Source: Escherichia coli
GTDB lineage: Bacteria; Pseudomonadota; Gammaproteobacteria; Enterobacterales; Enterobacteriaceae
DNA length: 64,000 bases
NCBI RefSeq assembly: GCF_050920415.1
Contig: NZ_CP169309.1
Strand: one strand, 5' to 3'
The position numbers are program-made. Shown piece after piece: positions 56,001-62,000 of the stretch (its first letter is position 1; every line of letters begins with the position of its first letter).

Positions 56001-59000
56001 TAAAGCTGCCCTGATTGCGAAATCTCGCGATACCTTTATTCGTCTGTTGAACGCCACCCCTAACGGTGTGATCCGCAACTCCGACGTAGCAAAAGGCGTG
56101 GTTGAAACCTCACTGAACGTCGGTGTCGTGACCATGACCGACAACAACGTAGAAATTCACTGCCTGATCCGTTCTCTGATCGACAGCGGTAAAGACTACG
56201 TGGTGAGCATGCTGGATTCGCTGGGTAAACTGGCAGGCGCGAAAACAGAAGCGAAAGGCGCATATCCTGGCTGGCAGCCGGACGCTAACTCCCCGGTGAT
56301 GCATCTGGTACGCGAAACCTATCAGCGTCTGTTCAACAAGACGCCGAACATCCAGATTATCCACGCGGGTCTGGAATGTGGTCTGTTTAAAAAGCCGTAT
56401 CCGGAAATGGACATGGTTTCTATCGGGCCAACCATTACCGGTCCACACTCTCCGGATGAGCAAGTTCACATCGAAAGCGTAGGCCATTACTGGACACTGC
56501 TGACTGAACTGCTGAAAGAAATTCCGGCGAAGTAATTACAATAATGTCCACGCCTGCGGGCGTGGACTACTGTTTGAAGCCAATGGCTATCTATATCGAA
56601 ATAACAAAACATTATGAAACTCATGAAAAGGTCGCATATTTATATAGCTGCGACCATATTTCATGGGGAGAATTTCTGATCACCAAAGAAAGTTTTGCGC
56701 TGGAATCCGTGAAAGAACTTAAGGGTGAAAAGCAGAATTTTTATATGTTCAGAGCCTGGGGCAAAGTCAGGAAAACATACTTAGCCACGGGAGAATTTCC
56801 CCTGGAAACATGTTACGCCGCTTAAAGTCAGAATCATTTTTTCACGCGTTTTACATTTACCATTTTAGCATTACGCCTGCACCACATAGCAATGGCGGCA
56901 GCTACTAATGCCAGTTCCAGTAAAAAAGACCAGTGTAATAAAAAATTGAGCCACCACGGATGATGTACCGCTGTAATATGAAAGAATGCAAATGGCTGGT
57001 TAACGAAAGGCATCAACCACCAGATATCACCGACCAGCGTATCGAGTAATAAATGCGCGATACTATTCAGGCAAAACACCACGCCCAACCACGCCGGAAG
57101 TTTATTCTTCGCAATTGCGGCCCAGACTAATGTCGCCGCCAGCAGAGCAAACCATAATAATGGCCAATGAGACGGGTAAAGATGATGATGTCGTTGCCCG
57201 TTATCCACCAGATAACACCAGAAGAGATCAAAATCGGGTGCAACGGCCCCGACTAAGCCAATAACCATCGCCCACCGCGCATGACGAGAAATCAGCGGTA
57301 GGCGTTTCACTAAAGTACAAGTTATTAAATATCCAGCCGGAAGATGACCGATAAACATGACGAATCCTTTCATTTTTGCCCGCCGCTTTCACGAAGAAAA
57401 CGGCGGGTGACATTCCTCAATTACACAGCGATAAAAGCCATCCCTGTAAACGTCCGTCGCGGGTTGCCACGTTCAATCTGGTGATGGAACATTCGCCGCT
57501 GCGATTTCAGCGCCGCGCTATTTTCCTGTCGCTGTTGTTCCAGCTTCCAGGCAATCAGTAATCGCGCCAGCCGTTTGTTAGCATGCTGACTGCGCTCTGA
57601 CTGAACCTTCACCCTAATACCGGATGCCAGATGCGTGGCGCGCACAGCCGAGTCGGTTTTATTGACATGTTGACCGCCCGGCCCCGACGAACGCAGCGTC
57701 TCATAATGGATCGCATCGGATTGCTCCTGCTCATCTGCAGTAAAACGCCCAATGCCCAGAAACCAGTTTTTGCGCCCATGATGAGGGCGATACGGACTCG
57801 GACAAATCCACTGGATAGTGCCACACCAGCTTTCGCTTAGTGCCCATGCGTTGTCGCCATCAAGTGAAACCAGCGCCGAACGTAGTGTGTCAGAGTAGCG
57901 ACCCGTTTCTGTTTCCAGCACCGTTACCGCGACGTCTTGTCGGGCAGCTTCTTTAATCAGCCTGTCCAGTGCCTTTTTCACTGCGAGACAACATTCTTCC
58001 GGTCCCTGAGCTGAGGAGAGTTGTAGCAAGATCATCCTTTTTTCCCTCCACTGTTTTTGAGCGTCAGCACCGGACGCAGTCGCGCGACAGGAATAATTAA
58101 ACCGGCCTGCACCAGACATTGCACCACACTTTCAGCCGATTTATAGGCTTGTGGCGCTTCTTCAAAGATGAGTTGTTTATCGCGACAAATTACCCGGCTG
58201 CCAAGTTCAGTACGTGAGAGCTGCGTCGCTGTGTATTTCGCTGCCAGACGCCCTTTACACTCGGTGCGCCCCCATTTACGCCCTGCCCCATGCGCCAGCG
58301 AGTGGAGCGTTTTTTCGTTCGCAACAGGCTTAACCAGCCAGGAGTAATCACCGCGTGAACCGGGAATAATCACCAGACCGTTGTCATCCGGCGTAGCCCC
58401 TTTACGGTGTAACCATCCTTGTTGATCGCCGATTCGACATGCGCTAACAAAGTTATGCGCCACATCCAGAACCGAATTTCCGTTGGCCTTAACTTGTTGC
58501 ATTATGCGCAAAGCGATCAGCTGGCGATTAATACGCGCAAACGCCAGCGCATCATCATGTTCCGCAATATAACTTAGCGCGTCGTCACTGCCTTCAGGCA
58601 AACCATGATGCGAAAACGAGGCAATATGCCGCTGTAAAATAGACTGCCCTAAACCACGCGAGCCGCTATGGACCAGCAGTTGCAGATGCTGCGCATCCAG
58701 ACCTGACAGTGCAAACAGTTCAGCGTCGATAATTTGATCAACTTGTTGCAGTTCTGCGAAGTGGTTTCCGCCACCGATAGAGCCAAGCGCGCAGCGCCAC
58801 GGATGCTGTGCAAACGCTGACGGCAGGTTTTCCTCCAGCCAGCTTTCTTCAGCAACGTCATCCAGCACAGATAATCGCTTTTCAAACTTATCGGCGTTGT
58901 ATTTACGCGCGAGAATATCTGTTTGCCATAGCGCCATGCCGCAGCCGATATCATTGCCGACCAGTGCCGGGTAAAAACGGCCTACGGAGAAGAACGCTGC

Positions 59001-62000
59001 GCCAATCGGATAGCCGCGTCCGGGGTGTAAATCTGGCATCCCTACTACGCGTTGCATGTCGGGTAAATTTGCCGTGATGTGTAATTGTTGGATCGCTGAA
59101 CTCTCGATCCACAGGTCATCAGATGCAATGGTAAATACCGCATCGGATAAGGGACGAATATATTTGCCCATGTATCATTCCATTTATACTCGTCATACTT
59201 CAAGTTGCATGTACTGCGACTGCGTTCGTTCACCCCAGTCACTTACTTTAGTAAGCTCCTGGGGATTCACTCGCTTGTCGCCTTCCTGCAACTCGAATTA
59301 TTTAGAGTATATAAATATAAAAATCAGGAAATGGCAGACGAATCCAGGGCAAGAAAAAAAGAATTAATCCTGGAAAGGTCTGCAAAGAGTCATTGATAAA
59401 GGATTTTTCATGATTTACCTCCTTGCAGTTTGTGGAATAAGAAAACGCGCACATATTAGGCGGGCGTTATTTTCATTGCAAGCTGGATTTAGTGTTGCGG
59501 TTTATATCGCATATGAAAATTAGTAAACCACGCTCCCCGGCATTCAACGCGCTGCTGCTTAACTGTCTGAAAACCATAACGTTCAAAAAAGGGTTTTGCG
59601 GTTATGCTGGCGTCCACCGTAAGTTCGGATTCAGACTTAATCAAAGGTTTTAACAAAGCGCTGGCAACCCCACGGCGGGTATATTCAGGGTCAACAAATA
59701 ACATATCGATATAATGTTCAATGCGGGAAATAAAACCAACCGGTTGTGCATTAATCACAGCAACCCGCACTTGTGATTTCGCGAGTTTCTCTTTCCATCG
59801 ATGTTCATCAATCTGCGCCCAGGCGGCAATTTGTTGTGGTGAATAATGCTGACTGGCGGTCATCGTAACCGCTCTAATAAAAATAGCGCATAGTTGCTGA
59901 AAATCGCCAGGCTGATAGTCTCTTATTTGTATATTATTCATAATCCCAACACCAGTTGTCTTTCCATTTGCGGATCCAGCAACGTCACATGCAGCCCCAC
60001 CAGCCGCACACCGCGCCCGCCACGGCGTTCATCCCAGGTTTTACGCGCAGTGGCGATCAAGTCAGCTTTATTCAGCCGCGGCCAGACGTGTTCCTGAGTG
60101 GTTTGCTGAAAATCGTCGAACTTTAATTTCACCCCCTGGCGGGCAATCAGCAAATCAGGTTTTACCTTTGCCAGACGGCGTTCAAGTTCCGGATACAACC
60201 GCTCGATAATCGCTTCACATTCAGACCAATGATGAATATCTTCCGCCATCGTGCGTTCCACACCAACGGATTTTCGCAACCTTTCGCTGTTAACGTCGCG
60301 CTCGTCAATGCCCTGGCTACGCTCCCACAAAATGCGGCCAAATTTGCCAAAGCGTTTAAGCAACGTCACCAGATCACACTTTTGTACATCGCCACAGGTT
60401 CGTAGCCCCATCGCTTCCAGTTTTGCCGCCGAGACTTTGCCGACACCGGGAATTTTTGCCAGCGGTAAGGTTTGCAGAAATGCCGGAACTTCTGCCGGCG
60501 TAATCACAAACTGACCGTTGGGTTTATTCATGTCTGAGGCGATTTTGGCGAGAAACTTGACCGGCGCAACGCCCGCAGACGCCGTCAGTTGCAGCTCGTT
60601 GAAGATCGTCTGGCGGATTTCCTGAGCGATAAGGGTCGCAGAGCCGTGGCAATGTACGCTGTCGGTGACGTCGAGATAAGCTTCATCCAGCGACAACGGC
60701 TCAATACGCGATGTGTAGCGAGAGAAGATTTCGCGGATATGATTTGACGCTTCTTTGTAGGCGTCAAAGCGCCCTGGAAGCAAGGTGAGATGCGGACACA
60801 GTTTGAGCGCCATGCCGGTTGGCATTGCGCTACGCACGCCAAATTTACGCGCGGGATAATTGGCGGTGCTGATCACCCCCCGGCGTTCGCGGCTGCCGCC
60901 AATAGCAATAGGGATATCGCGCAGGGCGGGATTGTCGCGCATCTCCACCGCGGCGAAAAAGCAGTCCATATCCACATGAATGATTTTACGCATTGCTCAC
61001 CTCTCAATACTGGTAAAGTATACAGTGATTTCAGAGTTTGAGAAATGCGTAAAGATTCAGCATTTAACGCGTTCGCTGCGAAAGCACCTGCTGCTTATCC
61101 AGCTTTTTCACCAACGGCTGCACCACCTTATCCCCATGCTGACCAAAATATTGATACAACGTATCGGACGCGCTTTTGGTGAGCACCATAATCTCAATGC
61201 GCCGGTTACCCGCGCTTTGCGGATTTTTGGCATCCAGCAGCATCTGGTCCGCCATCGCGCTCACCTGCATTACTTTATCTTCCGGCATCCCGGCGTCTTC
61301 CAGCACCCGACGGGCCGAGAGCGCGCGGTCACCCGAAAGGTTCCAGTTGTTGTAGATATTGCTTTTATAGGCCATCGCATCGGTATGCCCGGTAATAATA
61401 ATTTTGTTATCGAGCGAGTCGAATACCGGCGCGAGCTCCACCAGCAGCGTTTTAAAGAACGGCATAATCTTCGCGCTGCCGCGTTCAAACATATTGCGGT
61501 TCTGGTCATCTTTAATCAGCACGCGTAATCCCTGCGGAACAATCTCCATCTCCAGATTGGCTTCCATATGCGCATCGCGGGCGATGGTGTTGATACTGGT
61601 CGCCAGCTCGCCAAGCTCAGTGGCGGACTTCTTCTTCAGTAGCGCCGTTTTCTCGTTGACGTCGCGGGCTTTTTTCTCCGTCTCTTCCGGCACCGCCACG
61701 GTGGCAGGTTTCAGCGGATGCGTCGGGCTGATTTTATTTAACGGCGATAGCCCGCCGCCGTTGAAAATCGACTGCCCGTGCAGCGCGGCGATAATGCTTT
61801 CACGCTCGGATTTACTGACGCTGTTGACAATCCACAGCGTCATAAACAGCGCCATCATTGCCAAAGTAAAGTCGGCGAACGCCACCTTCCACGCCCCGCC
61901 GTGATGCCCGGCATGATTCTTTTTGATCTGCCGCCGGACGATGGTGGTTTTTGCCCCTCGCTCGCGGCGGTTGCCCGTCTTCCTCATGCTTATTCTTGCT

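Follow-up and report, generated by a model that had tools for sequence, protein, structure and literature searches.

An intact rtcB2-prfH ribosome-repair operon in Escherichia coli with a candidate attenuating leader and a probably independent membrane gene in the same chromosomal slot

The RtcB2-PrfH system has been shown to rescue ribosomes that colicin E3 has cut in the 16S rRNA and to re-ligate them (PMC9304027, PMC9223846; its function is treated further in PMC13166195), and a two-gene rtcB2-prfH operon is the arrangement described throughout the literature (PMC1586002, PMC9304027). In the present work, we examine an intact rtcB2-prfH pair, and a membrane-protein gene that follows it, in a stretch of 64,000 nucleotides (nt) from Escherichia coli (NCBI RefSeq assembly GCF_050920415.1, contig NZ_CP169309.1), the whole of which is called the window below. 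The closest known system is the operon of E. coli ATCC 25922 (Tian et al. PNAS 2022, PMC9304027; Maviza et al. 2022, PMC9223846; PDB 7SA4). Knockout of this native operon sensitises cells to colicin E3 (PMC9223846), and plasmid-borne rtcB2 or rtcB2-prfH protects the K-12 strains BW25113 and MG1655 (PMC9223846, PMC9304027). We will show that the pair in the window corresponds to this system, and we consider it very probable that the locus is made up of the known operon and an independent hydrolase gene that occupies the same slot.

A further described relative is the armZ (PA5471, PRK09588)-PA5470 (prfH) operon of Pseudomonas aeruginosa, which is described as being under the control of a 13-amino-acid (aa) leader, PA5471.1, that senses ribosome stalling (Morita 2006 and 2009, as reviewed in PMC3516279 and PMC12057347; PMC13041342). 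K-12 ykfJ has also been reported to be inducible by the translation inhibitor 4-azaleucine (PMC3516279, citing Morita 2006).

The window is 100% identical to strain MFDS1022581 (NZ_CP169399.1). The pair lies on its minus strand, as does the membrane gene, and consists of the following features.

58032..59171, minus strand: rtcB2, RNA ligase of the RtcB2 subfamily, 379 aa (NCBIfam matches, identity to the ATCC 25922 protein, H294).
57421..58035, minus strand: prfH, release factor H, 204 aa, with GGQ at residues 120-122 (TIGR03072, identity to the ATCC 25922 protein, PDB 7SA4).
58032..58035, minus strand: ATGA in which the rtcB2 stop codon and the prfH start codon overlap (taken from the sequence itself).

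An earlier note on this DNA had described a 379-aa open reading frame (ORF) of the RtcB family whose TGA overlaps the ATG of a 204-aa release-factor homologue with a GGQ motif, and all of this is borne out. The first protein (59171..58032) scores 639 bits against the equivalog model NF007153 (cut-off 407) and 621 bits against TIGR03073 ('release_rtcB', cut-off 272), with residues 1-378 covered. The second (58035..57421) reaches 324 bits against the equivalog model TIGR03072 (cut-off 167) and matches chain 8 of PDB 7SA4 with an E-value of 8e-133, while the RF1 and RF2 models extend over just its C-terminal part, the N-terminal domain 1 of those factors being missing. Its gene has a ratio of nonsynonymous to synonymous substitution rates (dN/dS) of 0.06-0.12. 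The 4-nt overlap, read as ATGA at 58035-58032, recurs across all enterobacterial loci inspected, and rtcB2 stands directly upstream of prfH in all enteric loci and in 13 of 14 distant prfH loci that are described further below. Residue 294 of RtcB2 is a histidine, within SLAHGAGRKW, and GPGGQHV forms residues 118-124 of PrfH, with Q122 intact. The exchange Q122E in the GGQ motif makes PrfH inactive. The exchange H294N inactivates EcRtcB2 (PMC9304027).

The comparison with ATCC 25922 gives the same two genes, the same chromosomal site and the same ATGA overlap, with H294 and Q122 in both strains. The proteins are 96% identical, PrfH agreeing at 196/204 positions (8 differences) and RtcB2 at 364/379 (15 differences). 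The window strain differs in three respects, namely the last two PrfH residues (AV instead of EG), an enterobacterial repetitive intergenic consensus (ERIC) element in the 5' leader, and a segment with the hydrolase gene and a 93-aa ORF between prfH and pepD; neither the element nor the segment is present in ATCC 25922, where pepD lies directly beside prfH. As judged from the encoded proteins, the pair is intact and is the already published RtcB2-PrfH system, and the earlier note was right in recalling that such an intact pair has been described as a repair system for ribosomes damaged in 16S rRNA (PMC9304027, PMC9223846) and that K-12 carries fragments, K-12 derivatives keeping ~35% of the query (PMC9304027). 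Because the window RtcB2 is 96% identical to the assayed protein (PMC9304027), we infer that it re-ligates 16S rRNA cleaved by colicin E3. The mechanism to be expected is that of the literature, the window itself being known from its sequence: PrfH would recognise 70S ribosomes with a cut in the decoding centre of the 16S rRNA, as made by colicin E3-type nucleases, and release the nascent chain, and RtcB2 would then re-ligate the 16S rRNA. The two genes are translationally coupled through the overlap.

In a survey of 5,426 complete E. coli genomes, in which a full pair was defined as at least 80% of rtcB2-prfH, 2,674 genomes hold the full pair. The intact operon is thus present in about half of the complete genomes, its mechanism is already published, and the pair itself adds nothing new.

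We now turn to the gene downstream of prfH, for which the relevant features are given here.

56834..57358, minus strand: membrane gene, encoding a YdjM-family (PF04307) polytopic inner-membrane putative metal-dependent hydrolase, 174 aa (Pfam, homologues, AlphaFold2).
57379..57407, minus strand: conserved hairpin of 12 bp between prfH and the hydrolase gene (spacer of 62 nt), lacking a U-tract (fold, allele comparison).
56560..57428, unstranded: presence/absence segment of ~870 bp, comprising the 93-aa ORF, the hydrolase gene and the spacer (genome comparison).

The earlier note had placed a 179-aa membrane hydrolase-like ORF 47 nt past prfH. The ORF stands, and so does the prediction of a polytopic membrane protein, here assigned to the YdjM family; the length and the gap have to be changed to 174 aa and 62 nt. 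The ATG at 57373, on which the longer reading depends, is found in the window allele only. All 85 aligned homologues and the remaining E. coli alleles begin with the conserved MFIGHLP, which places the start at 57358; this ATG has AAGGA in front of it (57369-57365) and is the one that RefSeq annotates. The protein matches the Pfam YdjM family with an E-value of 9.2e-9 across residues 8-159 and has 377 homologues at E<=1e-3. Ten residues are invariant in the 85 homologues (H5, D42, D44, H58, H59, H64, H102, D106, H142 and E148), and the AlphaFold2 model, with a predicted local distance difference test (pLDDT) score of 90.5, is all-helical, with four long predicted helices and a long C-terminal one. 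The dN/dS of 0.07-0.14, the same as for prfH, together with the conserved His/Asp/Glu set, is the reason for counting the gene as real, and at the level of sequence evolution it is a functional gene.

The likeness to YdjM/PF04307 (DUF457, 'LexA-binding inner membrane-associated putative hydrolase') consists of the Pfam match, the polytopic membrane topology and the conserved His and Asp residues. Compared with the YdjM core, however, the window protein belongs to a distant subfamily that lacks an NCBIfam model match and a LexA box. Neither the hydrolase nor the 93-aa ORF has a match in NCBIfam, PADLOC or PHROGs, and structure comparison returned no solved relative of the membrane protein beyond generic helical bundles. 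For the YdjM family as a whole we found no assayed biochemical activity and no solved structure, and the name hydrolase is a prediction; one family member has been called 'possibly a phospholipase' (PMC11442139). The family is in this sense widespread and strongly constrained, but without known structure or activity. Our working view is that the third protein would be an inner-membrane metal-dependent hydrolase, possibly with a lipid substrate, unrelated to ribosome repair. It can be mentioned here that the 90%-identity protein cluster of the E. coli hydrolase is represented by a PrfH and contains both kinds of protein, presumably owing to a fused or read-through ORF call.

The spacer between prfH and the hydrolase gene had been described in the earlier note as free of a terminator. 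This holds for canonical intrinsic terminators, as the canonical-site scan of the window called neither such a terminator nor a consensus promoter in the gap, but the gap does contain a conserved hairpin with a GC-rich stem of 12 bp (57407-57396 / 57390-57379) and a 5-nt loop. Four E. coli alleles share the stem and differ in the loop (UUCGU, UAUAU, UACAU). The hairpin was not called by the intrinsic terminator scan, a U-tract is absent, and Rfam has no family for it or for the leader of the operon. Since the genes are co-oriented and separated by 62 nt with no canonical terminator or consensus promoter, co-transcription is plausible in the window strain, and the chances that the hydrolase gene would receive read-through transcription from prfH appear to us about even. 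Any such read-through reflects adjacency, and does not thereby make the hydrolase part of the repair system.

How the membrane gene is distributed across E. coli is more informative. The segment with the membrane gene and the 93-aa ORF is present in 328/5,426 genomes (6%), and the membrane gene accompanies the pair in 12% of the full-pair genomes, the other 88% being without it. In most E. coli a ~50-nt hairpin resembling repetitive extragenic palindromic (REP) sequences replaces the ~870-bp segment, and the genomes without the segment all share one breakpoint, at query position 894, which falls inside the last two prfH codons (the protein ends in MAFIAV in the window and in MAFIEG there). The shared breakpoint and the REP-like replacement point to a single ancient event, a deletion or replacement of ~870 bp by which most E. 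coli lost the hydrolase gene. The K-12 strains BW25113 and MG1655 also lack the membrane gene. As protection in both ATCC 25922 and K-12 occurs without it, the hydrolase is not needed for protection. The E. coli isolate 648 (L100) is a separate case, in which a single IS1-mediated deletion took the hydrolase gene together with prfH, rtcB2 and a portion of yafP; it is the sole genome of the segment-bearing lineage seen without the pair.

Beyond E. coli, the hydrolase gene occupies the same slot, from dinB(-yafP)/rtcB2-prfH to pepD, in several enterobacterial lineages, and the orthologues in this slot in other genera are 59-70% identical. Both the pair and the hydrolase gene are found in E. fergusonii, Salmonella enterica, Superficieibacter electus and three further enterobacterial lineages. 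The Klebsiella oxytoca group has the pair alone, as do K. aerogenes L229-L231, with leader-rtcB2-prfH in what is the commoner form in that species. The earlier note had named the occurrence of the membrane gene at this position in genomes lacking rtcB2-prfH as something that would speak against a common unit, and K. aerogenes L003 shows just this, its order being dinB-yafP-hydrolase-pepD with rtcB and prfH absent. All four combinations of pair and hydrolase gene occur at this one syntenic site.

For more distant genomes, a 12-sequence PrfH alignment was searched against genome contigs and matched 80 loci. Of these, 14 are genuine prfH loci, belonging to beta-, gamma- and alpha-proteobacteria, Bacteroidota and Lentisphaeria, the rest being RF1/RF2-type matches. 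None of these 14 non-enterobacterial loci has a YdjM-like neighbour within 6 kb, as searched with a 109-sequence hidden Markov model with the filters off (--max), and the three non-enteric hydrolase homologues considered (Halopseudomonas, Pseudomonas, Aromatoleum; 3/3) are unlinked to rtcB or prfH. The comparison of co-occurrence proposed in the earlier note, which had put the membrane gene in the same unit as rtcB2-prfH, has thus gone against that proposal, both within E. coli (12% of full-pair genomes) and at the distant loci (0/14). One of the 14 loci, from Acinetobacter sp. (L013), differs from the other 13 in having prfH without rtcB within 6 kb. A PrfH subfamily has been reported to act on intact stalled ribosomes, and the L013 protein may belong to it (PMC12829566).

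Taken over this range of genomes, the comparisons indicate that the hydrolase is neither needed for the repair pair nor evolutionarily tied to it; it would be a gene of long standing in the dinB/yafP-pepD slot of Enterobacteriaceae, independent of the operon. We therefore advise against annotating the membrane gene, or studying it, as a third part of the ribosome-repair system, which is a useful negative.

Three observations weigh against this reading and speak for an accessory role of the gene. The three genes are co-oriented and 62 nt apart across a gap with no canonical terminator or consensus promoter; the three genes keep their order in E. coli, E. fergusonii, Salmonella, Superficieibacter, L006 and L107, at least six enterobacterial lineages with saturated synonymous sites; and 327/328 segment-bearing E. 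coli genomes hold the full pair, every decayed pair sitting where the hydrolase gene is already lost. The retained pair and the decay pattern could hint at a weak functional link. The decay pattern is not read as coupling, however, because it involves few independent events and strong phylogenetic structure, and it is equally explained by phylogeny, the neighbourhood being syntenic core genome. The corresponding alternative is that the hydrolase gene is a dispensable, co-transcribed third gene of an ancestral operon that aids against ribotoxins, for example where nuclease colicins or contact-dependent inhibition (CDI) toxins enter at the inner membrane. The purifying selection on the gene would also agree with such a role. 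Yet K. aerogenes L003 has the gene without the pair, the pair occurs without the gene in 88% of full-pair E. coli, ATCC 25922, most K. aerogenes and the K. oxytoca group, no linkage is seen outside Enterobacteriaceae, and protection has been shown without the gene (PMC9223846, PMC9304027). Further, the spacer varies from 61 to 167 nt across lineages, its sequence is not conserved, and it holds a terminator-like hairpin in L006 and a promoter-like site (10/12) with REP-like repeats in L107. We regard this alternative as unlikely.

Another option considered is that the hydrolase gene belongs with the SOS/dinB neighbourhood and is induced by read-through of the LexA-controlled dinB-yafP transcript. 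This draws on the membership of K-12 YdjM in the SOS regulon and on an S. aureus homologue that heads a LexA-controlled operon (PMC6590174, PMC11442139), and also on K. aerogenes L003, where the hydrolase gene comes directly after dinB-yafP with a 182-nt spacer that has no terminator call and where, as in the window (61010-61025), dinB has its LexA box. In the window, on the other hand, 2.1 kb of leader, ERIC element and two genes lie between yafP and the hydrolase gene, the hydrolase is distant from the YdjM core (Pfam E 9e-9, no NCBIfam match), and no LexA box of the form CTGT-N8-ACAG is found upstream of either the hydrolase gene or rtcB2, the sole box nearby being that of dinB. The explanation seems to us quite improbable. 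Direct SOS control of the hydrolase was rejected as well, the LexA box search having returned the known dinB box only. Finally, a recent foreign insertion of the hydrolase gene and the 93-aa ORF beside prfH in a minority of E. coli, as the presence of the segment in 6% of genomes, its GC content (0.42-0.46 against 0.52-0.54 in the neighbours) and the breakpoint inside the last prfH codons might suggest, is very hard to believe, given the same-slot orthologues at 59-70% identity in several other genera, an allelic synonymous divergence (dS) of the hydrolase gene of ~0.2 that matches the flanking prfH, and a restriction to Escherichia that holds for the 93-aa ORF segment alone.

With the known operon and an independent hydrolase gene as the preferred reading, the leader of rtcB2-prfH is in our judgement the sole item that deserves follow-up. 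Its features are as follows.

59453..59481, minus strand: candidate sigma-70 promoter, with -35 TTGCAA at 59481-59476, a 17-nt spacer and -10 TAATAT at 59458-59453 (inferred from conservation).
59364..59411, minus strand: 15-codon upstream open reading frame (uORF), MKNPLSMTLCRPFQD followed by a stop, with a perfect Shine-Dalgarno (SD) sequence, AAGGAGGT, at 59424-59417 (conservation).
59327..59428, minus strand: leader RNA with mutually exclusive helices (folds, duplex energies, pair counts).
59428-59419 paired with 59389-59380, minus strand: leader helix A (fold).
59383-59378 paired with 59339-59334, minus strand: leader helix Bx (fold).
59373-59369 paired with 59348-59344, minus strand: leader inner helix B (fold).
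59336-59327, minus strand: leader anti-SD (fold).
59186..59312, minus strand: ERIC-like 127-nt imperfect palindrome between the leader anti-SD and the rtcB2 ribosome-binding site (fold, Rfam).
59175..59181, minus strand: rtcB2 ribosome-binding region GGAAUGA, the partner of the anti-SD in helix C (pairing).

The yafP-rtcB2 spacer is strikingly conserved among enterobacterial lineages in which the synonymous sites of the coding regions are saturated. TTGC and TAnnAT of the candidate promoter are invariant at fixed spacing in 8 enterobacterial loci; the site scores 8/12 and was not called by the consensus scan. A side observation is that, in the hydrolase-only allele of K. aerogenes, similarity to the rtcB2 promoter extends over the -35 region (GTCTTGCAATAAA) and is lost after it. 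The SD sequence AAGGAGGT is invariant in the enterobacterial spacers, and the uORF that follows it has its start, stop and length of 15 codons fixed in 9 enterobacterial lineages, codons 2-8 varying freely. Outside this group, a uORF of 10-19 codons with a strong SD is found 133-202 nt upstream of rtcB2 in 8/8 other loci from Proteobacteria and Lentisphaeria. The shared CUUUGCAG motif is read in different frames depending on the lineage, which indicates conservation of the RNA rather than of the peptide. Among metagenomes, a DNA-pattern scan for further leaders gave 80 matches, of which 7 are real, all of them E. coli-like, and the others are due to chance.

Three conserved segments of the leader RNA can pair in either of two arrangements that exclude each other. 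One arrangement consists of helix A, between the SD of the uORF and the middle segment, and helix C, between the distal segment and the ribosome-binding site of rtcB2; the other consists of helix Bx, between the middle and distal segments. Over eight lineages, including Kangiella, the two arrangements are 97.7% and 98.9% paired, with 2 double-sided changes each, figures in which most pairs are invariant and for which the structures were derived from the same sequences as were counted. At columns 146/176 of helix C, 5 lineages have U-A and 3 have A-U. The duplex energies of the two arrangements are comparable.

These features suggest a model in which a ribosome that stays at the beginning of the uORF would leave the middle segment available to capture the distal segment, so that the ribosome-binding site of rtcB2 would become exposed. 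Ribosomes stalled early on the uORF would in this way raise expression of the operon, as in PA5471.1-armZ-PA5470. Colicin E3-damaged ribosomes have been reported to accumulate at start codons (PMC13166195), which fits stalling at the start of the uORF. Two results tell against the model: a fold simulation with ribosome masking was equivocal, the rtcB2 ribosome-binding site not being clearly opened, and a canonical terminator is absent from the leader (59172-59488). In E. coli, a second, upstream copy of the anti-SD (UUAUUCCA) re-pairs the rtcB2 ribosome-binding site in the masking simulation. That the leader works as a stalling-responsive translational attenuator of rtcB2 is, on these structural models, a proposition to which we would give equal weight for and against. 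We found no mention of a leader or promoter of rtcB2-prfH in the E. coli RtcB2-PrfH publications consulted, and likewise no uORF peptide in the literature searched.

It is instructive to compare the leader with known attenuators. PA5471.1 precedes an RtcB-family gene of the same NCBIfam family that is followed by prfH, and it is described as a short uORF of 13 aa (15 codons in the window), both uORFs lying 130-250 nt upstream and both leaders having a four-segment layout with alternative pairing. There are also differences. The output in Pseudomonas is described as a 3:4 transcription terminator, whereas the enterobacterial 3:4 helix covers the rtcB2 ribosome-binding site and is no canonical terminator, and ArmZ of Pseudomonas has gained an anti-MexZ role. 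By analogy, the enterobacterial leader is probably the counterpart of the PA5471.1 attenuator, and we infer homology of the two leaders. The attenuation concept is then already known from Pseudomonas, and the E. coli leader would probably be a further instance of it. In the Pseudomonas armZ literature, that leader is treated as unique to MexXY; if the link from the E. coli leader to PA5471.1 is true, ribosome repair would be induced by ribosome stalling across Proteobacteria. Translational attenuation of the ermC type is also similar, in that a ribosome arrested on the leader ORF would free segment 2 for segment 3 and expose the site held by segment 4. Compared with ermC, however, the peptide of the window uORF is not conserved, and no drug-dependent arrest motif is evident in it.

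The leader also allows the accessory role of the hydrolase to be put in a fuller form, in which a stalling-sensing leader would drive rtcB2-prfH with read-through to a hydrolase acting on the entry route of the toxin, the three genes being an ancestral unit. Ribosomes crippled in the decoding centre would then stall at the uORF start and switch on their own repair enzymes together with a dispensable hydrolase. We consider this quite improbable.

The ERIC-like palindrome between the anti-SD and the rtcB2 ribosome-binding site has a fold z-score of -7.6 and matches Rfam V_AS5 with an E-value of 2.6e-8, which is below the gathering score. It is common to the E. fergusonii locus and absent from sequence type 73 (ST73)/ATCC 25922, and there are ~6 copies per genome. 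This insertion may alter expression of the operon.

Two further features lie at the pepD side of the segment.

56544..56825, plus strand: 93-aa hypothetical ORF convergent with the hydrolase gene (RefSeq annotation; coding status doubtful).
56546..56567, unstranded: bidirectional terminator-like hairpin after pepD (terminator scan).

The 93-aa ORF is confined to Escherichia and missing from the other genera examined. It is antisense to the 3' region of the hydrolase gene, has a GC content of 0.42, and is 97.5-98.6% identical among alleles, compared with ~94% for its neighbours. The ratios of nonsynonymous to synonymous changes (2:2, 6:0 and 6:1) suggest that it may not be protein-coding.

As to the wider neighbourhood, dinB is followed directly by yafP in the window (59489-60993), and the yafN-yafO toxin-antitoxin pair, which lies between these genes in K-12, E. 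fergusonii (L105) and isolate 648 (L100), is absent. The stretch from frsA to lafU (53023-62020) is 93-96% identical to other E. coli, compared with ~98% for gpt, and is matched at 99% or more by 2-3/5,426 genomes; as judged from these identities, the window strain carries a divergent lineage or a recombinant segment here, a feature that is unspecific to rtcB2. Farther along (61064-64000, L001), lafU is complete (318 aa), with motA and a gene for a FliA/WhiG sigma factor after it, and the window strain appears to have kept the Flag-2 lateral flagellar cluster, of which K-12 and ST73 have remnants.

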